64,000 nucleotides of DNA from a virus. Where the stretch lies: positions 7,911 through 71,910 of IMG/VR virus record IMGVR_UViG_3300012933_000221; one strand, given 5' to 3'. The position numbers were made by a program, and so were the translations under genes. The notes below the pieces were generated by a model that saw only the letters and a list, made by a program, of their open reading frames with translations, ran no database searches and had not been told where the DNA came from. Position 1 is the first letter of the stretch. The number at the start of each line of letters is the position of its first letter. Of this stretch, positions 7,771-64,000 are shown one piece after another.

Positions 7771-8753
7771 AAGTATTTGAAGTAACTAGTCCAAGAAGCG
7801 GCGGCGATGTTCAATACCAGCCAGTAGTTGATAAGGGTCCTAAGACTCCTGAAGAACTAGCTGCTATTAATGCGCAACGTGCAGCATCGGGCGAACAAGC
7901 TGCTGATGTTGCTGACTATAATGCAAGACAGGCCAGCGGACTATATGCTCAATCGCCTAAGTCAGTTCAACAGACCACTGCACCAGTTACTCCTACTGCA
8001 CCAGTTACTCCAACTCCACTAGCAGCACCGCAAGTAGCAGCGCCTGCTAAACGACAATGGGGCACAGGGGTACTTGGTCTCGGCAGTCAAGGCCCAGAGG
8101 TAGAAGCATTGCAGCGCCGCCTTGGTATTCCTGCAGATGGCAAGTACGGACCACAAACAAAAGAAGCAGTTATTGCACTTCAAAAGAAGATTGGCGTTAC
8201 CCCTGACGGAGCTTACGGACCAAAGACTAAAGCTGCTGATAGTAAGCAGATGCCTGCCTTACCTGGCTCAAAGCCTGCACCAGAAATTGATCTAGCAGTA
8301 CAACCTAAACCTACAGTTAAACCTGCAAGAGATAACGTTGCTCAAGCAAATGCATATATGGATCAGCAAAGTGCAGCAGCTGATCAAAAATGGGCTGATA
8401 ATCGTGCAAGAAGATCAGCAGCACGACAACGATCAGATAACGCAAATGCAACTGTAGATGCAGAATTAGCAGCAATGGATAAAGCGACTGCTGGAATAAA
8501 AGCTGGAACACAGTTACCAACAGCTCCGAAGTTTAGAATAGAAAAATCTACGTATGCACCAATCCAAGGACAGGCTCAGCCACCAAGCTATACTGTCACT
8601 GACATCGAACGTGGTGTGCAAGTGTTTACAGGCAAAAGCGATAAGGAAGCTATGAATTATGTTAACCAGAATGACCCAGCCGGTGCTGCACAAACAGGCA
8701 TAACAGCTAACGAGTCGCTTGATAGAATACTACAAATAGCAGGCCTAAGATGA
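7767..8753 (+). CDS. Peptidoglycan-binding domain protein, C-terminus IAGLR
   Basis: Two PG_binding_1-like repeats: LQRRLGIPADGKYGPQTKEAV and LQKKIGVTPDGAYGPKTK. The C-terminus is ...QIAGLR. Confidence 0.55.
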   Translation: MKVFEVTSPRSGGDVQYQPVVDKGPKTPEELAAINAQRAASGEQAADVADYNARQASGLYAQSPKSVQQTTAPVTPTAPVTPTPLAAPQVAAPAKRQWGTGVLGLGSQGPEVEALQRRLGIPADGKYGPQTKEAVIALQKKIGVTPDGAYGPKTKAADSKQMPALPGSKPAPEIDLAVQPKPTVKPARDNVAQANAYMDQQSAAADQKWADNRARRSAARQRSDNANATVDAELAAMDKATAGIKAGTQLPTAPKFRIEKSTYAPIQGQAQPPSYTVTDIERGVQVFTGKSDKEAMNYVNQNDPAGAAQTGITANESLDRILQIAGLR

Positions 8754-9441: not shown

Positions 9442-10407
9442 ATGCAGATTAAAGAATTTTCACAACCAATTACAAGCAAGACGCTTAACGAAAACGTAGC
9501 CAAGACATTTGGCGTTAAATTAAACCTTGAACAATTTTCAGATGTTCAACTAGAAGATGTTCGTAACAAACTACGTACTGAAGTTAGCCAGTTTGAAATG
9601 AGCGAAAGCTATGATGCTGTCCACGAAAGCGGCAAGTATCAGAAGACTCGTGCATTGTTAGACGTTATCAATCAAGCAATCTTAGAACGTGAAGAGTCGT
9701 CAGAAGACGAAGAAGAAGTAGACGAAGACTTCGAAGAAGAAGAACAAACTAACGAAAGTAGAAATACTTACTACGCAACGTTGCGTCAAAAGGCTAGAGA
9801 GCAATCAGTTCCAGAAAGCTGGATCAAGAGTGCTATCCACCGCATTGAATTAGGCGAATCAGATCAAGAAGAATTAGCAAGTGAATTAACTATTCGTTAC
9901 GAGCTAACAGAATCACAAGCAGAACATATTGTATATCTAAGCGAAAGCGAACAATCAAAAGCAGAGATTATCATGGCCACCAAGGACATGGTTGATCGTA
10001 TCACTGGCTGGCTAGAAGATGTGGCAACCATGAAGGCAGAACAGCTCCTTGAACTATTAGACTCTATAAGAGATGAACTAGGAAGTGATGTTGCAGAACA
10101 ATACTCACAGGCAATTAAGCCAGCATTAGAAAACATTTATTCAACACTAGAATCAGCACGTCAATCACTAAGCTCAGGCTTATCAATTGTATCAGGCGGT
10201 GAAGCTCCTACAATGGGCGCTCCAGTAGGTGGAACTCCAGACTTAGGTGGCGCACCTGATATGGGTGGCGACATGGGAGCACCAGAAGGTGAACCAGCAG
10301 GCGAGCCAATGGCAGACTTAGGCGGCGATGCCGGACGTATGAAGCGTGAAAGCGTTGACTACAGCCGTAGACTTAGCCAACTTTTAAACACACCAAAAAA
10401 AAAGTAA
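9442..10407 (+). CDS. Acidic hypothetical protein with a Gly/Pro-rich tail
   Basis: Product of 321 aa with poly-acidic stretches and a GGxPD repeat tail. An ATAAATAC motif lies upstream. Confidence 0.45.
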   Translation: MQIKEFSQPITSKTLNENVAKTFGVKLNLEQFSDVQLEDVRNKLRTEVSQFEMSESYDAVHESGKYQKTRALLDVINQAILEREESSEDEEEVDEDFEEEEQTNESRNTYYATLRQKAREQSVPESWIKSAIHRIELGESDQEELASELTIRYELTESQAEHIVYLSESEQSKAEIIMATKDMVDRITGWLEDVATMKAEQLLELLDSIRDELGSDVAEQYSQAIKPALENIYSTLESARQSLSSGLSIVSGGEAPTMGAPVGGTPDLGGAPDMGGDMGAPEGEPAGEPMADLGGDAGRMKRESVDYSRRLSQLLNTPKKK

Positions 10408-10436
10408 ATGAAAATATAGATCCCCTGGTTAACTTA

Positions 10437-10733
10437 TTGCAATCGGTTTTATCCAATGCAAATTTTGACCAGGCGACTAGCTCTCTAACTTGGAGAGCGT
10501 TAAACGCCCTAGCATCTCAACAAGGTGCACCAGCAGTCGATTACAAACGTTTTGACAAACGCTGGCAAGATGAAGGCGAAGAAGGTATCCTACACCAATT
10601 AGTTGATCGCTATGACGGACAAGGATTAGTACTTAAAACCGACGAACACGAACACCCAGAAGTGCAAGGCAAGCCAAAGCAAGGTCAGATTTCTGCTATG
10701 GCAAAACGAGCAACCGCAAAAGCTAGACGTTGA
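10437..10733 (+). CDS. Hypothetical protein
   Basis: ORF of 98 aa. Confidence 0.35.
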   Translation: MQSVLSNANFDQATSSLTWRALNALASQQGAPAVDYKRFDKRWQDEGEEGILHQLVDRYDGQGLVLKTDEHEHPEVQGKPKQGQISAMAKRATAKARR

Positions 10734-20523: not shown

Positions 20524-20760
<237 letters not shown>

Positions 20761-21726: not shown

Positions 21727-22257
21727 ATGATACGCATCATAAAATTTATAGTTTTTACCCTAGTTTTTCTAGCGGTATCATATGTAGGATACGAGACGGT
21801 TACTCATAAGTTAACCACACTAAAGGAATCTCAAGTCTACGCAAGCCCAATCACAGCCGATATGAGACAAAAGCAATTAGATTGCCTCGCTCGAAATATC
21901 TATCACGAAGCTGGCTACGAGCCATTTGAAGGTAAAGTAGCTGTCGCACAAGTCACAATCAACCGTACAGAATCTGGACAATTCCCAAGCGACATTTGTC
22001 AGGTTGTACATCAAAAGAACGTTGTATACGAAAAGGTCCTTTGCCAGTTCAGTTGGTATTGCGACACAGCAAGCCTAAAGAAACCAATAAACGGCCCTGT
22101 ATACACAGAAAGCATGGAAGTAGCAAAGAAGGTATTATTGGAAGGATTTAGATTGCCATCTATTAAAGATGCTCTTTATTTCCATGGGGATTATGTTAAC
22201 CCTAAATGGGGTAAGAAACCCATTGCCAAAATTGGCCGTCACATCTTTTATCGTTAA
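21727..22257 (+). CDS. Cell-wall hydrolase, SleB family (endolysin-like), N-terminal anchor
   Basis: Hydrolase_2 signature CLARNIYHEAGYEP...VAQVTINR...ICQVVHQ...HIFY. An N-terminal hydrophobic segment is present. Confidence 0.7.
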   Translation: MIRIIKFIVFTLVFLAVSYVGYETVTHKLTTLKESQVYASPITADMRQKQLDCLARNIYHEAGYEPFEGKVAVAQVTINRTESGQFPSDICQVVHQKNVVYEKVLCQFSWYCDTASLKKPINGPVYTESMEVAKKVLLEGFRLPSIKDALYFHGDYVNPKWGKKPIAKIGRHIFYR

Positions 22258-23202: not shown

Positions 23203-24465
23203 ATGATCTTAGCTTGGTTACTCCTACTTACAGGCTTAACAATTTCAGCAGTCGCGATCTACTACTCAGTAGTAGGCCTGGCTGCTATTTTCTCAGCCGC
23301 AGTTATTCCCATCATTGTTATGGGTTCAGCATTGGAAGTAGCCAAGTTAGTATGCGCTAGCTGGTTAAAAGCAAACTGGACGCAAGCACCCCGACTAATG
23401 AAAATATACATGACTACCGCAGTCATTGTATTAATGATTATTACGTCAATGGGTATCTTTGGATTCTTGTCAAAAGCACACAGCGATCAAAGTTTAGTCT
23501 CTGGCGATGTAATGGCTAAGATTAGTGTTTACGACGAAAAAATCAAAACAGCAAAAGACAACATAGATGCAAACCGCAAAGCTCTTAAACAAATGGATGA
23601 AGCTGTCGACCAGGTTATGGGTCGCAGTAATGATGAAAAGGGTGCCGACAAAGCTGTGGCAATCCGCAGAGGTCAGCAAAAAGAACGTAGTCGTCTTCAA
23701 TCCGAGATTGCGGCCGAGCAAAAAATCATTGCTCAAATCAATGAAGAACGTGCGCCGATCGCTGCCGAGGTCCGTAAAGTAGAAGCAGAAGTTGGCCCGT
23801 TAAAATACATTGCAGCCTTTGTATATGGCGCAACAGATGAAAGTATTTTAGAGAAAGCAGTTACTTGGGTTATCATTACAATTATTGTAGTGTTCGATCC
23901 GTTAGCAGTTATCATGTTACTAGCTGCACAGATGACATTCGGTTGGAAGAAAGAAGAAGAAGCGGCTGCTGCTCCTGTTTATGTCGCCGATGTTACTATG
24001 CCAGACTATGAACCTGATGACGGTCCATTAACTGAAGAGCAAGTTGAACAGATTAAAGAAGATGCACAACCATTTCTACCAACAGGTGAAGTAGTTAGCA
24101 CTAGCACACTGTTTGTCGATGCAGGCGAGCATCCACAAGATACGTTTGAACATGAAATTGAACAAGAAGAAGTTATCGTTGATCAGGCACCGACAGTAAC
24201 GTTGCCCGATACACTAGCACCAGCAGAGATCGCTGAGCCAGTCAAAGTAGAGTCTGAGTTAGATAAGTGGAATAAGATGATCGAGCAAGCGGAAGCAGAG
24301 CTTGAAAAAGAAAAGAAACAACTTATCGAAGCCGAGGCTGAAAAGTATCAACCAATTCCAGAAGTAGAACGTCCAGGCGACTACTTACCAGAAGAAGAAT
24401 CAAAAAAAAAAACTTACATGACGAAGGATCAAACAGGGACAATTCAGTTGAAGAGTCGGGAGTAA
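23203..24465 (+). CDS. Membrane-anchored coiled-coil acidic protein
   Basis: Multiple N-terminal TM helices, a coiled coil and an acidic C-terminal half. An A10 run precedes the stop (see findings). Confidence 0.5.
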   Translation: MILAWLLLLTGLTISAVAIYYSVVGLAAIFSAAVIPIIVMGSALEVAKLVCASWLKANWTQAPRLMKIYMTTAVIVLMIITSMGIFGFLSKAHSDQSLVSGDVMAKISVYDEKIKTAKDNIDANRKALKQMDEAVDQVMGRSNDEKGADKAVAIRRGQQKERSRLQSEIAAEQKIIAQINEERAPIAAEVRKVEAEVGPLKYIAAFVYGATDESILEKAVTWVIITIIVVFDPLAVIMLLAAQMTFGWKKEEEAAAAPVYVADVTMPDYEPDDGPLTEEQVEQIKEDAQPFLPTGEVVSTSTLFVDAGEHPQDTFEHEIEQEEVIVDQAPTVTLPDTLAPAEIAEPVKVESELDKWNKMIEQAEAELEKEKKQLIEAEAEKYQPIPEVERPGDYLPEEESKKKTYMTKDQTGTIQLKSRE

Positions 24466-24708
24466 TCGGTTATGTACAAAATTCCGAACAAGCAAGTCCT
24501 AGCTCGCTATGGTCTGCAATAAACGGAAGAGAGAACATTAAAACAATTGACGAATTATATAAACTATACTCCGAAGACCAATTTAACAACGTAATAGTTG
24601 ACCCAACTACTGATCCAGAGTTATATAACTTTGTAGAAGAAACCAAAACTAAACCTCGTTTTAACGATTACCAGAAAGAACAACTAGCAAACTTTGTAAG
24701 CAGGATAT

Positions 24709-25128
24709 ATGAACTTAGGAAAAATTAATCTCATCACCCCACCGGATAAATTGTTTAACTTGAATTTAAACTACTTGTTAGTTAAACCATCAACTCATGT
24801 TAAACAGCAGTTCCAGACTATCTTAAGTCACTCAATTGAAGAAGTAAACGTATTCATTTACGATCAAGAAGAAACTGATGTCAGCTGGCTACTAAGTGTA
24901 GCAATGCAAAGCGATGTTGTTATTATTGACGTTGACAGTTGTGATCCTACTACACAGAAGTTTATCACATTCTTGTTAGCACAACCAAATACGCACTACA
25001 TTACTAACGACGAGCTTACTCCTTACAACTTGATTAGCAAGAATCGAATCTATGATTTGGACTTCATTGTGAAACAGTTGATGGAAGAGGATGACGAAGA
25101 AGGCGAATTGGACGATGACGAACAGTAA
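24709..25128 (+). CDS. Hypothetical protein with an acidic C-terminus
   Basis: Product of 139 aa with a poly-D/E tail. Confidence 0.4.
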
Positions 25129-25348
25129 GCGAACCGGTACTGGTATTGTTATAAAAGATACCGAGAATATCAACGTAGCACTTCGCCGATTCAAACGTAA
25201 AGTGGAAGAAGGTGGAAAATTGGACGAACTAAGAGCTCGTGAATTTTACGAAAAACCGACTACTGAACGAAAACGAAAAGCCGCTTCGGCAAAGCAGCGT
25301 TATAAGAAAAAACTCCAAAACGAGCAACTTCCCCCAAAATTATATTGA
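25115..25348 (+). CDS. rpsU: Ribosomal protein S21 homologue
   Basis: VALRRFKR ... [14 protein letters not shown] ... LY closely matches bacterial S21. The internal ATG overlaps the upstream gene end. Confidence 0.8.
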
Positions 25349-26341: not shown

Positions 26342-28243
26342 ATGAGCAAAATCATCGGTATCGACTTAGGTACAACAAATAGCTGTGTAGCGATTCTAGA
26401 AAACGGAATTGCTAAAGTAATTGAAAACAGCGAAGGTGCTAGAACAACACCCTCAATCATTGCATATACTAAAGACGAAGTTCTTGTAGGTGCAACAGCA
26501 AAACGACAAGCAGTCACAAACCCAAAGAATACAATCTACGCAAGCAAGCGACTTATCGGTCGTAAGTTTGACGAAGCCGCAGTACAGAAAGACATTGACC
26601 TAATGCCTTACTCAATCATCAAAGCTGACAACGGCGATGCATGGATTGAAGCTAATGGCGAAAAACTTGCTCCACCGCAAGTGTCAGCTGAAGTACTACG
26701 CAAAATGAAAAAGACTGCCGAAGACTATTTAGGTCATTCAGTAACACAGGCAGTTATTACAGTACCAGCTTACTTTAATGATAGTCAACGTCAAGCAACT
26801 AAGGATGCAGGTAAGATTGCGGGCTTGGAAGTATTGCGTATTATCAACGAGCCAACAGCGGCTGCTCTTGCCTACGGCGTAGACAAAGCTGACAAGAAGG
26901 ATCGTAAGATTGCAGTGTTCGACTTAGGTGGTGGTACATTCGACGTATCCATTATCGAAATTGCCAACATTGATGGCGACAAGCAAATTGAAGTATTGTC
27001 AACTAACGGCGATACATTCCTAGGCGGTGAAGACTTTGACCAAGCCATCATGGACTACTTGGTTGCAGAGTTTAAGAAAGACAACGGCGTTGACTTGAAG
27101 AGCGATATGCTTGCTCTACAACGTTTGAAAGAAGCTGCTGAAAAGGCCAAGATCGAATTGTCAACAGCCGCAAGCACAAGTGTTAACTTGCCATACGTAA
27201 CAGCAGATGCAAGTGGACCTAAGCACTTGAACGTTACCATTAGCCGTGCTAAGTTTGAAGGTCTAGTAGATGGATTGATCCAGCGTACACTAGCACCATG
27301 TAAGACTGCTATGCAGGATGCTAAGGTTACAGCCGCTGACATTGACGAAGTTATTCTAGTCGGTGGTCAGACACGTATGCCTAAAGTACAAGAAGCAGTT
27401 GAGAAGTTGTTTGGTAAGACTCCACGCAAGGACGTTAACCCAGACGAAGCAGTTGCCGCAGGTGCAGCTATCCAAGGTGCTGTTCTAGGTGGCGATAAGA
27501 CAGACGTTCTATTGCTAGACGTTACTCCATTGTCGCTAGGTATCGAAACAATGGGCGGTGTGTTTACCAAGTTGATTGGTAAGAATACGACTATCCCAAC
27601 TAAGCATTCACAAATATTCTCTACAGCCGATGACAATCAACCAGCAGTTACTATTAAAGTAGCACAAGGTGAACGTGAACTATTCAAGTACAACAAAGCA
27701 CTAGGCGAGTTTAACTTGGAAGGTATTGCTCCTGCAATGCGCGGCACACCACAGATTGAAGTTACCCTTGATATCGACGCCAACGGTATTATGCATGTAA
27801 GTGCTAAGGATAAGAACACTGGCAAAGAAAACAAGATCACAATTAAGTCCGATTCAGGCTTAACTGATGCAGAGATTCAACGTATGGTACGTGAAGCTGA
27901 AGAAAACGCAGAGTCTGATAAAAAGGCAAAAGAGTTAATCGAAGCACGTAATACAGCTGAAGCTCAAAGTCACACACTTAATAAAGACTTTGAAACATAC
28001 AAAGATCAATTGAGTGAAGAAGAAAAGACCACTTACGAAACAGCTAAAACTGCTTTGAACGAAGCAGTCAAAGGCGAAGACGTAACAGCAATCAACGACT
28101 CTATTACCAAGCTATTCGAATCGGCTAGCCCAGTAATGGCAAAGAAACAAGCAGCTGACCAAGCTAAGGAACAGAGCGCTCAATCTGGCGAGCAAACTGT
28201 AGATGCGAGTTTCACAGAAGTTGACAAAACAGACACACAGTAA
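26342..28243 (+). CDS. dnaK: Chaperone DnaK (Hsp70)
   Basis: N-terminus [22 protein letters not shown] and a full substrate-binding domain. Product is 633 aa. Confidence 0.95.
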
Positions 28244-28255
28244 TATAATAAACAC

Positions 28256-28278
28256 GTAGGGCGCCTTCGGGGCCCTAC
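28256..28278 (+). promoter_or_regulatory. Stable hairpin between dnaK and ibpA
   Basis: GTAGGGCGCC-ttcg-GGGCCCTAC stem-loop with no T-run. Possible processing or attenuation site. Confidence 0.3.
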
Positions 28279-28308
28279 AAAGTTCTTGCTTAATATAAGG
28301 AGATAATT

Positions 28309-28728
28309 ATGACACAACTAAGAACTATTAATGCGGCAGACCTTGCCCAACTAAGCAGAGCCCTAGTCGGCTTTGATCGATACTTTAGCTCACAAGCTAC
28401 CAACAGCAATTACCCACCACACAACATCGTTAAGTATAGTGACGATACGTATGCTATCGAAGTTGCGGTTGCAGGCTTTACAAAAGATGAAATTAGTGTT
28501 AGTATTGATCAAGACCAGTTAACTATCCGTGGTGTAATGAATCGCCCAAATAAAGGTGATATCGAATACCTACATCGTGGACTAGCTGCTCGAGATTTTG
28601 AACAGACATTTACTCTTGCTGAGTATATGGAAGTTCGAGGTGCTAAGGTTGCAGATGGAATGTTACAAATTGACATCCAGCGCATTGTTCCTGAGGCACT
28701 CAAACCTCGTCAAATCACAATTAACTAA
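28309..28728 (+). CDS. ibpA: Small heat-shock protein IbpA/IbpB-like (Hsp20)
   Basis: GFDRYF ... YPPHNIVKYSDDTYAIEVAVAGF ... IDIQRIVPEALKPRQITIN aligns along the whole length with enterobacterial IbpA. Confidence 0.85.
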   Translation: MTQLRTINAADLAQLSRALVGFDRYFSSQATNSNYPPHNIVKYSDDTYAIEVAVAGFTKDEISVSIDQDQLTIRGVMNRPNKGDIEYLHRGLAARDFEQTFTLAEYMEVRGAKVADGMLQIDIQRIVPEALKPRQITIN

Positions 28729-28742
28729 GTGTAAATAAACCC

Positions 28743-28760
28743 GGGGGAGGAAACTCCCCC
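28743..28760 (+). promoter_or_regulatory. GGGGGAG-GAAA-CTCCCCC hairpin (GNRA tetraloop)
   Basis: Perfect 7-bp stem with a GAAA loop, between ibpA and clpS. No T-run follows. Confidence 0.3.
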
Positions 28761-28764
28761 ACTC

Positions 28765-29079
28765 ATGGAGAATATAATGCCAGGTACCGATATCCAAATC
28801 GACGAAAAGATCAAATCTACAGTTTCCGAGCCAAAGCGCTGGAAAGTAGTATTCCTAAATGATGATGCTACACCAATGGAATTTGTAATTGAATTGCTAA
28901 CTCAAGTATTCAAACACACAGCTGATTCTGCAAAGGATATCACTATGCAAGTTCACGAAACAGGTTCGGGCATTGCTGGCGTGTACAGTTTTGAAATCGC
29001 AGAAGCTAAGGCTGTTGAAGCAACTAGTCTTGCTCGTGCAAACGGATTTCCGTTACAAATTAAAATGGAAGAAGAATGA
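28765..29079 (+). CDS. clpS: ClpS ClpAP adaptor
   Basis: KVVFLNDDATPMEFVIELLTQVF matches the ClpS core. Confidence 0.8.
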   Translation: MENIMPGTDIQIDEKIKSTVSEPKRWKVVFLNDDATPMEFVIELLTQVFKHTADSAKDITMQVHETGSGIAGVYSFEIAEAKAVEATSLARANGFPLQIKMEEE

Positions 29080-39109: not shown

Positions 39110-39724
39110 ATGCACGTAATTCCATTATTTGCAAATCCGTTAGGATGGGATATGCTTGATTTGGATAATGATGCTCTAGCAGAGTATTGTTATCAACAAG
39201 AGCATACTTCACTCGATCCAAGGACTGCACTTGGTTGGCAAAGTAACTTAGTTGATACGTCAGCTGAACAGTTAGCTCCACTAGTTGAAGAAATAAAAAT
39301 CAAGTTGCAAGATGCAACTCATTTGTTTCCGGTCCTAGAAGAACATGCTCCTCAGATCACAACCAGTTGGATTAATGTTAATAAGCCAAACGGAATTTCT
39401 TTGCAGAATAATGTTGCACATTTGCATCCTGGAAGATTTTGGACATTTGTATACTATGTCAAAGCTGCTCCAGGTTGCGGAGATTTAACTTTAACTTCAC
39501 CTCTTAAAAACATGTTAAGTTATGCTATTCCAAATCAGGTTTATAGCAGATTAACTCCGTTTAATGCGCTCCAATGGACAGTAACTCCAGAGCCTGGCAA
39601 ACTAATTATGTTTCCAGGCTGGATTGAACACCAAGCGCAAGAGAACCGAAGTGATAGTGACAGAATAAGTATTGCTATAAACGCAGACTTACAAAATTTA
39701 AGTAAGATCCAGTATCCGACTTAA
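39110..39724 (+). CDS. 2OG-Fe(II) oxygenase superfamily protein (marine-phage-type)
   Basis: C-terminus LIMFPGWIEHQAQENRSDSDRISIAIN matches the FPSWLxHxV...RISxSFN pattern. Confidence 0.5.
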   Translation: MHVIPLFANPLGWDMLDLDNDALAEYCYQQEHTSLDPRTALGWQSNLVDTSAEQLAPLVEEIKIKLQDATHLFPVLEEHAPQITTSWINVNKPNGISLQNNVAHLHPGRFWTFVYYVKAAPGCGDLTLTSPLKNMLSYAIPNQVYSRLTPFNALQWTVTPEPGKLIMFPGWIEHQAQENRSDSDRISIAINADLQNLSKIQYPT

Positions 39725-39734
39725 ATACAAGATA

Positions 39735-40105
39735 GTTGTAATTCCTTTGGATAGAAGGCATTTTGGACGCGGGTTCGACTCCCGCCAGGTCCACCATTAA
39801 ACATACTCTTCCCTACCCTGGCTGGAACGGCTGTGCGGGGATAGGAGAACAGACCCGTTTGAGTATGTTTAATAATGGGCCTGCCATGGTTTCGACAGGG
39901 TGAGATATTGAAGACGGCAACTGAGTAGGCGATGACTCTAAATCAAGCAAATTAAAGTAAATGCTAACACATCTACATTCAAGCGTATCGAAGTTAACGT
40001 CGCCTTAAACGACGCTGAGTTCGCTCTAGCAGCCTAAGAAACTGCACTTGCGAGGTAGGACTTACCTTGTCATCCAAACAACCAGAACCCGCTTAGGCGG
40101 GTTTC
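39735..40105 (+). ncRNA. ssrA: tmRNA (ssrA), circularly permuted two-piece type
   Basis: Acceptor piece: T-arm GCGGG-TTCGACT-CCCGC, 3' strand CAGGTCC, ACCA (39769..39796). Coding piece starts GGGCCTGCCATGGTTTCGACAGGG at 39877, giving a 7-bp acceptor stem with G3:U. The tag ORF ANTSTFKRIEVNVALNDAEFALAA ends with TAA at 40035..40037. A terminal hairpin lies at 40087..40102. Confidence 0.7.
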
Positions 40106-40165
40106 TTTATGGTTGACACATTCTTCAAAATCGCTTATACTGTAGTTACACAGAAGGAGAAGTAT

Positions 40166-56534: not shown

Positions 56535-56851
56535 TGGGTACGCAAACTGACTACTTCAACAAGATCGGTTATAAGCACAAGTATGATATCGGTGACAGAG
56601 TCATCGGTACATACAAAAAGATCCCCGTAGTAGGTACAGTTGGAAACGATCGTTTGATTAATCATACTGATGGCCCAGAAATAACACTACACTTAGATCT
56701 GCCAATAAAGGTTGACAATGTGTATACATCGTTTATAATAGTTAAACATAAAGATATAAGGCGCTTGAAGTCTTTGGAAGACACTGAGCCTCTAAAACTC
56801 AAGGAAGCGGGTTCGATTCCCGCCAAGCGCACCAAACAAGGAAAGAAGTAA
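56534..56851 (+). CDS. Hypothetical protein (3' end overlaps a tRNA-like gene)
   Basis: Product of 105 aa. Confidence 0.4.
   Translation: MGTQTDYFNKIGYKHKYDIGDRVIGTYKKIPVVGTVGNDRLINHTDGPEITLHLDLPIKVDNVYTSFIIVKHKDIRRLKSLEDTEPLKLKEAGSIPAKRTKQGKK
56761..56834 (+). tRNA. Putative suppressor tRNA, anticodon CUA (reads UAG)
   Basis: Acceptor GCGCTTG/CAAGCGC + A + CCA. D-arm GTCT/AGAC (short loop). Anticodon stem TGAGC/ACTCA with loop CTCTAAA (U33, CUA, A37). T-arm GCGGG-TTCGATT-CCCGC. Confidence 0.45.
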
Positions 56852-63610: not shown

Positions 63611-63696
63611 GGGTGCTCGGTCGGAGTTGGAGAGCCACGGCGAGCTGTAACCTCGTTCACATAGTGTAGTAAGTTCGAATCTTACAGCACCCACCA
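63611..63696 (+). tRNA. tRNA, long variable arm, anticodon GUA (Tyr)
   Basis: Acceptor GGGTGCT/AGCACCC + A + CCA. Anticodon stem GCGAG/CTCGT with loop CTGTAAC. Variable arm CAC-ata-GTG. T-arm GTAAG-TTCGAAT-CTTAC. Confidence 0.6.
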
Positions 63697-63701
63697 ATTA
63701 T

Positions 63702-63775
63702 TCCTGGATAGTTAAATGGTATAACAATCGGCTGATAACCGGTCATTACAAGTTCGATTCTTGTTCTAGGAACCA
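63702..63775 (+). tRNA. tRNA, anticodon GAU (Ile)
   Basis: Acceptor TCCTGGA/TCTAGGA. D-stem GTTA/TAAC. Anticodon stem ATCGG/CCGGT with loop CTGATAA. T-arm ACAAG-TTCGATT-CTTGT. Ends ACCA. Confidence 0.6.
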
Positions 63776-63847
63776 AGTTTAGGATGCTAACAGCAAAGTT
63801 AAAAACTTTTCTTTTGGTGAAAACAAAAATGCATCCTGTTTAATTAT

Positions 63848-63921
63848 ATAGCGTTGGACTTCTGGGAGGTCACCACCCTTTCAAGGTGGCTAGGCGGGTT
63901 CGATCCCCGTACGCTATACCA
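63848..63921 (+). tRNA. tRNA, anticodon UUC (Glu)
   Basis: Acceptor ATAGCGT/ACGCTAT. Anticodon stem CCACC/GGTGG with loop CTTTCAA. T-arm GCGGG-TTCGATC-CCCGT. Ends ACCA. Confidence 0.6.
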
Positions 63922-63925
63922 ATAT

Positions 63926-64000
63926 GCCGTTGTAGCTCTCTGGGAGGGTAACTGATTGTCTATCAGATTTAGGCGAGTTCGATTCTCGTCAGCGGCGCCA
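63926..64000 (+). tRNA. tRNA, probable anticodon GUC (Asp)
   Basis: Acceptor GCCGTTG/CAGCGGC + G + CCA. T-arm GCGAG-TTCGATT-CTCGT. Anticodon arm CTGA/TCAG with loop TTGTCTA. Identity is tentative. Confidence 0.5.

Follow-up and report, generated by a model that had tools for sequence, protein, structure and literature searches.

How many proteins does a phage make from a gene whose last codons carry a long run of A's with two open reading frames beyond it? The question is raised by a membrane-protein gene (gene 1; 23203..24465, plus strand) in a 64,000-nucleotide (nt) stretch of viral DNA, positions 7,911 to 71,910 of the IMG/VR record IMGVR_UViG_3300012933_000221, which is referred to here as the window. 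The 0-frame open reading frame (ORF) of gene 1 encodes 420 amino acids (aa) and ends in SKKK-TYMTKDQTGTIQLKSRE before a TAA stop, and the run that precedes this stop opens onto a long -1 frame. The original prediction, made from these letters, was that -1 ribosomal frameshifting or transcriptional slippage at the run gives rise to a longer isoform, and it proposed comparing the homologous region in related phages as a check. The relatives speak for the proposal: the two-frame layout is conserved in about 165 of 171 related loci, and both frames show a coding type of conservation. From this sequence record, recoding of one kind or the other at the A-run is very probably real, while the chance that ribosomal slippage is its main agent seems close to even. 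We infer the shifting itself, its frequency and the precedence of the ribosome over RNA polymerase as main agent; both kinds of slippage may contribute.

Two frames at one run of A's

The run is the longest homopolymer of the 64-kb window. It had been described as ten A's at 24401..24410, lying 55 nt before the stop; counted again, it is a plus-strand A11 at 24402..24412, with the TAA at 24463..24465 falling 50 nt past its end. The 0-frame codons across it are TCA (24400-02) AAA AAA AAA (24409-11) ACT, and it contains two overlapping A_AAA_AAA heptamers (24402-08 and 24405-11) in phase with this frame. Standard decoding of TCA AAA AAA AAA ACT... would stop 17 codons on and give the 420-aa membrane protein with its conserved short tail. 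If a fraction of expression events slip one base back on the run, they would continue for 105 codons in the -1 frame up to a second TAA (24411..24728, plus strand), and the resulting product, ...EEESKKK-NLHDEG...RKN, would be 508 aa long in total, carrying a YVQNxEQ...W motif (Y-Q-N-E-Q...W) and a small helical C-terminal domain that ends in RIYELRKN. The peptide given for this extension in the original prediction is correct. Between 24412 and 24465 the plus strand is dual-coding, the 0 frame specifying the 17-codon tail TYMTKDQTGTIQLKSRE and its TAA while the -1 frame reads as a tolerant linker. As had also been recognised, the extension ends inside the start of the next gene, a 139-aa ORF at 24709..25128 on the same strand, whose ATG at 24709 gives an overlap of 20 nt. 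The predicted trans-frame junction peptides are SKKKNLHDEGSNR for gene 1 of this phage and SKKKDLHDQG... for its relatives, with KKKVNENIDPLVNLLQSVLSNANFDQATSSLTWR also listed as a junction peptide, and the short tail is predicted to yield TYMTKDQTGTIQLK.

The -1 frame is open from 24342 to 24725, or for 128 codons, a longer stretch than the roughly 112 codons from about 24390 first reported, and it is closed by the TAA at 24726..24728 just as stated. The absence of ATG from it extends to GTG and TTG. At the alternative-frame stop rate of 0.079 per codon in the window genes, 112 open codons have a probability of ~1e-4, and only 2 of 2552 alternative-frame open runs in those genes reach at least 100 codons, so that the frame was rightly considered improbable by chance.

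DNA of gene-1 relatives was taken from IMG/VR loci, an IMG/VR pattern scan allowing A8-A11, a metagenome scan and look-ups of individual proteins; these collections come from many samples and assemblers and partly overlap, and the counts are accordingly not all independent. Across 171 site-bearing loci the run is TC-A9-G in 163, A10-G in four, A8-G in two and A11 in two, the A11 pair being the window and an identical contig (L171, Logan ERR3489826). The window reads TC-A9-A-A-CTTACATGA where the relatives read TC-A9-G-A-CTTACATGA, a single G-to-A change with no indel, and the A9-G of the relatives provides A_AAA_AAA plus A_AAA_AAG at the same place and in the same phase. Their 0 frame runs TCA AAA AAA AAG ACT TAC ATG..., and their -1 frame, AAA AAA AAA GAC TTA CAT GAT..., enters the conserved C-terminus YVQNxEQ...W, usually followed by the helical domain of ~65 aa. 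The two-frame layout is present in 76 of the 77 A9 loci from the IMG/VR pattern scan and in all 53 family hits from the metagenome scan. The preceding Ser/Pro codon has an invariant A at its fourfold-degenerate third base, as would follow from A9-G in this phase making up two tandem X_XXY_YYZ heptamers.

The proteins tell the same two-sided story. When the hypothetical fused 508-aa product was used as the query, one type of homologue consisted of single ORFs of ~500 aa covering 98% of it, and a larger type consisted of proteins of 390-490 aa, all ending SKKK[T/S/N]YMxKDxxGxIQxKxRE. SKKK, Y, Q, N, E, Q, W and three F are invariant in the end-to-end alignment of the fused product with the long forms. 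The single-ORF homologues (e.g. P0002, P0003 and P0011) read through SKKK into the extension and carry one extra A (A10-G); at the DNA level such variants, with the long form in frame (L081-L083, L160), are scattered among A9 relatives. As 18 of 120 homologues are in frame, we considered whether A10 alleles might be common, and rejected this because the fused query ranks long proteins first and unbiased DNA-pattern scans give ~1-2%.

The two A8 variants are instructive in another way. One of them (L290, A8-G) is 99.7% identical to an A9-G locus (L220) and differs by a 1-nt deletion in the run that is offset by a 1-nt insertion 20 nt upstream; seven codons have been recoded by this double indel, yet the AAA AAA AAG phase and the short-0/long-(-1) layout are kept. 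The other (L007) also retains AAA AAA AAG in phase. Among more distant relatives, the YxQNxEQ...W end is either directly in frame without a run or replaced by an unrelated C-terminal domain, and because of this the recoding of gene 1 appears to be a derived feature of one clade. Three of the distant relatives (L050, L079 and L015) have the long C-terminus in frame 0, through TCT AAA AAA AAA GAT or an A10 run; in these a short-tail-like ORF of 17-19 codons persists in the +1 frame, where it is reachable by loss of one A and not by a -1 ribosomal shift.

Both frames bear the marks of selection. The 0-frame tail after AAG is 15-18 aa long in all 62 unique -1-type sequences and exactly 17 aa in 44 of them, and among these 44 the stop is TAA in 22, TAG in 21 and TGA in one. 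In the overlapping stretch the three 0-frame codon positions have nucleotide entropies of 0.83/0.85/1.31, the signature of coding in the 0 frame and not in the -1 frame, and amino-acid entropy is 1.40 in the 0 frame against 1.84 in the -1 frame. Past the 0-frame stop the signature becomes that of -1-frame coding (1.00/0.70/1.15). The +1 frame of the relatives closes within 3-7 codons. Since the DNA evolves as 0-frame coding sequence before the stop and as -1-frame coding sequence after it, both isoforms would be under selection, the short tail as a selected product and the extension as a selected coding region that appears to be reachable only from the run.

A second site and the scarcity of the heptamer elsewhere

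The only other run of at least eight A's in the window lies at the end of another gene. Gene 2 (9442..10407, plus strand) has a 0-frame ORF of 321 aa that ends ACA CCA AAA AAA AAG TAA, its A9 run occupies 10395..10403, and its -1 extension (10404..10733), which begins VNENIDPLVNLLQS..., comprises 109 codons and a stop, all on the same strand. Of the best 120 homologues of the fused gene-2 product, 119 stop at ...KKK; one homologue, P0153, is in frame through A10. In all 79 evaluable IMG/VR loci the sequence is C-A9-N-TAA, with G at the variable position in 56, A in 15 and C in eight; no run-length indel occurs in any of them, and the -1 extensions are 102-122 codons long. These relatives were found by an alignment-based scan, a single-protein scan of IMG/VR having returned no close relatives of the extension. 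The extension starts with the block V-x-E-x-[IV]-[DE]-P-L directly after KKK, upstream of its only candidate start codon, a TTG at 10437. Both sites occur together on many IMG/VR contigs. For the gene-2 protein there is a weak match to a PHROG whose annotation is virion structural protein. No third recoded family was seen in 2.5 Mb of fetched loci, a weak negative as these loci only flank the two genes.

Downstream of the gene-2 site most relatives have a stem-loop, the median best hairpin being -16.3 kcal/mol as compared with -6.5 for shuffles. When pairing was counted on a protein-anchored ungapped alignment, 75.4% of cells pair in the named 13-bp structure; the figure is 69.1% in shuffles, of which 0 of 500 get as high as the real alignment, and 27-47% with slid partners. 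Stem pair 15-32 shows 13 compensatory double changes. RNAalifold applied to a MAFFT alignment of gene 2 gave 0 pairs; this we set aside as a false negative caused by codon indels, as the protein-anchored alignment recovers the hairpin.

The window is otherwise free of the heptamer in the phase that would permit shifting. Outside the two sites, A_AAA_AAR is found in frameshift phase 0 times against 10.7 expected (66 inferred genes, 64 others). In phase 1 there are 0 against 7.8 expected, and in phase 0 there are five against 11.7 expected, even though Lys codon use is balanced, with 591 AAA and 583 AAG. Such complete purging of the heptamer from the other window genes suggests that the signal is potent in this host-phage system.

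Ribosome, polymerase or DNA

The reading we favour, at nearly even chances as to the agent, is programmed -1 ribosomal frameshifting, in which tRNA-Lys, at both the P and the A site, would move back by one base and pair anew with the tandem A_AAA_AAA / A_AAA_AAR. At gene 1 an X_XXY_YYZ heptamer lies in phase with the upstream ORF (in the window A_AAA_AAA, twice), the overlapping -1 ORF is a coding one that has no start codon of its own and in homologues is joined directly to the upstream protein, and the site and its layout are conserved across diverged homologues (A9-G in 163 of 171 loci; 62 unique -1-type sequences). Besides the tandem heptamers, features that favour the ribosome are the in-phase A8 variants and, at gene 2, the abutting stop and the downstream stem-loop, the latter because the polymerase has not yet transcribed structure that lies downstream of the site. 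The heptamer purge points the same way, since the seven bases of A_AAA_AAR are too short for bacterial polymerase slippage (PMC6260861). A_AAA_AAG is the heptamer of dnaX and IS911, and some shifts in tailed phages need no stimulator (PMC5009743, PMC4066793).

Several observations nevertheless weigh against the ribosome as main agent. A stimulator is common for such shifting, if not obligatory, and although one is present at the gene-2 site in most relatives, none was found at gene 1: RNAalifold gives 0 pairs there, the local fold in the window is weaker than that of shuffles (z = +1.5), and the median best local hairpin is -5.15 kcal/mol over 62 relatives as compared with -4.65 for shuffles, which is to say no hairpin. 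Nor is there a Shine-Dalgarno-like element upstream of the gene-1 run, where the conserved bases are those of Asp/Glu codons with variable third positions. The window itself lacks the G of A_AAA_AAG and has A11 in its place, and from work on dnaX it is known that a host tRNA-Lys(CUU), if present, makes AAG less slippery; a lone tRNA-Lys(UUU) favours slippage on that codon. At gene 2 the spacer to the stem-loop is ~11 nt, and up to 23 nt in some relatives, exceeding the classic 5-9 nt, and the window's own hairpin is weak (-9.3 kcal/mol). Finally, an A11 tract has been shown to cause RNA-polymerase slippage in C. rodentium tssM1 (PMC4256274), and bacterial RNA polymerase, with an RNA-DNA hybrid of 9-10 base pairs (bp), slips efficiently on runs of 9 A or T (PMC5009743). 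Rfam frameshift elements were absent from both sites at gathering thresholds, and likewise from a permissive scan that covered 24250..24800 only.

The strongest alternative is that it is RNA polymerase that slips. Over the A9-A11 run its 9-10 bp hybrid consists of rA:dT throughout, and there it would realign and insert one A in some transcripts, after which ordinary translation would yield the long form, and the same two isoforms would result. We consider this a serious possibility, though one that falls well short of an even chance. Nine or more A's make up the run in 169 of 171 gene-1 loci and in all 79 at gene 2, the fourfold-degenerate A included, a length that matches the hybrid and the ~9 or more A/T of known slippage sites (A11 in the window, A9 in 163 of the 171, with the two A8 exceptions). 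A9 holds constant although the next base does not (G, A or C in gene 2; A in the window), and the lack of any stimulatory RNA structure or Shine-Dalgarno-like sequence at gene 1 likewise speaks for the polymerase. The extension frame is the frame of one added A, the commonest slippage product, and the +1 frame of gene 1 is the one that closes so early; in the in-frame variants (A10-G; TCT-A9-GAT) the run is still there and the short-tail ORF is intact in the +1 frame, which loss of one A can reach and a -1 ribosomal shift cannot. There are precedents in Thermus thermophilus dnaX, with a run of 9, and in Shigella spa13, with a 112-aa extension overlapping the next gene (PMC5009743), as well as in C. 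rodentium tssM1, where A11 gives transcripts of A10-A15 and ~20% shifted product and both forms are required (PMC4256274).

Four points stand in the way of a polymerase mechanism. Two variants persist with A8-G, and in both the heptamer is still in phase; insertion slippage by E. coli RNA polymerase is slight on A-runs and undetectable below 8 A's (PMC6260861); the conserved stem-loop downstream of the gene-2 site and the abutting stop fit the ribosome, as known stimulators of slippage are hairpins in the upstream nascent RNA (PMC5009743); and A_AAA_AAR, although too short for the polymerase, has still been purged from other genes. The comparison of run length with phase cuts both ways: the 3' base varies with A9 fixed, yet both genes have the run in one and the same phase, and the heptamer is not lost in the A8 variants.

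Slippage could instead occur only in the DNA, with DNA polymerase toggling A9/A10 or A11/A12 so that each virion would be heritably short or long. Both genes do have rare extra-A variants in which the long form is in frame (L081-L083 and L160 at gene 1, where they are scattered among A9 relatives; P0153/L373 at gene 2), and A-run loci, including an A9 in agt, have been reported in T-even phages, with read-level indels at ~1e-3 (PMC12633550). However, the consensus run length is nearly fixed (163 A9, four A10 and two compensated A8 in gene 1; indels in 0 of 79 loci in gene 2), and frequent ON/OFF length polymorphism among close relatives was not observed. In genuine contingency loci the isolates present many lengths, both ON and OFF. 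Furthermore, no uncompensated case of the dead third frame is seen, purifying selection acts on the 0-frame tail, which makes the short state a product rather than an OFF state, the double indel of L290 restored two frames instead of fusing them, and the -1 ORF of 102-122 codons is intact in every A9 genome. On this evidence, a contingency locus and nothing more is improbable.

It is more doubtful still that the extensions are separate genes, translated on their own beyond the 0-frame stop through reinitiation or a non-canonical start codon. The strongest -1 conservation in gene 1 (GYVQNxEQ) does start right at that stop, and the TTG at 10437 in gene 2 could open an ORF of 98 aa. But the -1 ORF of the window offers no ATG, GTG or TTG, in-frame homologues run straight from SKKK into the extension, the conserved gene-2 block lies upstream of the TTG, directly after KKK, and the slippery cassette is conserved exactly at the junction in two unrelated genes.

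Hardly credible at all is the remaining explanation, that a sequencing or assembly error (the alternative named in the original prediction) or a recent inactivating frameshift has split a true gene consisting of a single 508-aa ORF: long A-runs are error-prone, single-ORF homologues of ~500 aa exist and the only other assembly with the exact sequence (L171) may share the window's sample, but the window is of the same length as the A9-G-A consensus of >160 loci from JGI, ENA, Logan and IMG/VR, its A11 is made by a substitution and not an indel, the single-ORF forms are a minority with one extra A, and the conserved 0-frame tail and stop evolve in the manner of coding sequence, so that neither a disruption unique to this assembly nor a decaying downstream frame or unconstrained tail was found.

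Gene context and known recoding systems

The gene-1 protein has N-terminal transmembrane helices, a coiled-coil hairpin, a further transmembrane helix and an acidic linker. The AlphaFold 2 (AF2) model of the homologue P0002 is poor overall (mean predicted local distance difference test score, pLDDT, 58) and is confident only in the coiled-coil hairpin and the C-terminal helical domain; the last ~65 aa of the long form are thus confidently predicted to fold as a small helical domain. Pfam returned only sub-threshold DUF4407 and Tetraspanin matches for the protein and PHROGs no match, a profile search against PDB sequences found just a designed coiled coil (E = 0.8), and Foldseek of the P0002 model against the PDB gave only generic coiled-coil matches with E above 0.06. 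The region had no blastn match in 50,697 deposited phage genomes, and tblastn against deposited phages found N-terminal homologues only (at most 45% identity; Pelagibacter phage Mosig and several jumbo phages), none with the extension. In Mosig the distant homologue is encoded immediately behind a glucosaminidase gene; its C-terminus is a different one, and its gene lacks a slippery run.

In the window, gene 1 is preceded by genes for a SleB-like cell-wall hydrolase (21727..22257), a 111-aa ORF without a family match and a 189-aa protein, and it is followed by those for the 139-aa protein, ribosomal protein S21 and an exonuclease, an order that relatives keep around gene 1 (L081-L083, L171). 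A role for gene 1 at the envelope or in lysis is a guess from this context, and its position two genes downstream of the hydrolase gene suggests, without proof, that the isoform ratio could matter for either. The window phage is T4-like and encodes rIIA, ribonucleotide reductase (RNR), nicotinamide phosphoribosyltransferase (NAMPT), a transfer-messenger RNA (tmRNA) and tRNAs. The S21 gene (25091..25348; Pfam E = 1.7e-16) is two genes downstream of gene 1, as it is in L081-L083; to link it to recoding would be pure speculation. The tmRNA gene lies at 39683..40128, with the ARAGORN tag peptide DAEFALAA, and its matches to the Rfam families beta_tmRNA and tmRNA_permuted hint at a betaproteobacterial host. 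A tRNA at 56761..56834 (47 bits against the Rfam tRNA family), with anticodon CTA and labelled 'Pyl' by ARAGORN, could be an amber suppressor; the window ORFs look intact under the standard code. A tRNA cluster (Tyr-GTA, Ile-GAT, Glu-TTC, Asp-GTC) at 63611..64000 runs off the end of the window. Other ORFs, recognised by sequence, we take to be a DnaK-like ORF of 633 aa, followed by a small heat-shock-like one (28309..28728) and a ClpS-like one (28765..29079), all within 26342..29079, and presumably an acyl-carrier-protein-like ORF at 20527..20760.

The device itself, -1 recoding on an A-rich run that adds a C-terminal extension, is known; what is new is the gene families in which it is found and the occurrence of the same cassette twice in one genome. 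We found no description of either site in the literature, and the gene-1 extension is in no deposited phage genome of the collection searched. Two widespread phage gene families would be systematically mis-annotated, as only the truncated proteins are called, and conserved C-terminal domains of 100-120 aa would have gone uncalled in hundreds of metagenomic phage contigs. The two sites, conserved and with comparatively good support for -1 recoding, lie beyond the tail-chaperone and transposase paradigms, and in gene 1 the 17-aa dual-coded tail is under selection of its own, which makes the short form a product and not a by-product. The relatives also constitute a natural mutational series (A8-G, A9-G, A9-A, A9-C, A10-G and A11, with or without a stem-loop, plus a compensated double indel) with which ribosomal slippage could be told apart from that of the polymerase and frameshift predictors could be trained. 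It is tempting to imagine, unlikely as we consider it, that an uncultured clade of aquatic T4-like phages recodes several unrelated genes by means of one general signal, a portable 'YC-A9-N' cassette, the ratio of short to long being set or changed during infection by phage translation genes (S21, tmRNA, tRNAs) or by a modified RNA polymerase. The carriers so far are at least two, the membrane protein downstream of the cell-wall hydrolase gene and a putative virion-associated protein, and if the idea were true it would make of the cassette a regulated isoform switch, not a fixed leak.

Among known systems, the T2/T4 contingency loci (PMC12633550) share with these sites an A9-type homopolymer in a gene of a T4-like phage and rare extra-A variants, but the tract at these sites hardly changes in length from lineage to lineage, and selection acts on both frames beyond it. 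The OrfAB proteins of IS1 and the IS3 family are -1 fusions that use A_AAA_AAC and A_AAA_AAG, variants seen also at the gene-2 site, often with a stem-loop; the genes flagged here are not mobile elements, being single-copy and syntenic in phage genomes. The G/GT tail assembly chaperones likewise gain a C-terminal domain by a conserved -1 shift close to the 3' end of a phage gene, often without stimulators and presumably at a fixed ratio. They lie between the tail tube and tape-measure genes, however, and use varied heptamers, whereas gene 1, which lies in a non-structural region, downstream of a cell-wall hydrolase gene, specifies a membrane protein and is not homologous to them (no PHROG match).

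Of the systems based on polymerase slippage, T. thermophilus dnaX and the Shigella genes spa13, mxiA and spa33 have runs of 9 A/T as the slippage site, and the 112-aa extension of spa13 overlaps the next gene much as the 105-aa extension of gene 1 does by 20 nt (PMC5009743); the genes and their functions differ, and in T. thermophilus dnaX it is the zero frame that specifies the long product. The likeness to C. rodentium tssM1 is closer: there too an A11 lies a few tens of nt before a premature stop in the gene for an inner-membrane protein, the C-terminal domain needs the shift, two length variants are both needed, and no Shine-Dalgarno-like sequence or RNA structure is nearby (PMC4256274). 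Its extension is in the +1 frame and its RNA heterogeneity, A10-A15, has been measured; moreover, the ancestral A9-G here is a classic ribosomal heptamer, and the protein families are unrelated. In E. coli dnaX, which produces tau and gamma, the resemblance is to the ribosomal side of the argument, as the A_AAA_AAG of the relatives is in the same phase, two C-terminally different products result, and the gene-2 site also has a downstream stem-loop. The dnaX shift is aided by an upstream Shine-Dalgarno-like element and a stem-loop 6 nt downstream and reaches ~50%, whereas no stimulator was found at the flagged site, where the A tract is 9-11 long and, in the window, without the G; and the shifted product of dnaX is the shorter of the two, while in the phage it is the longer.

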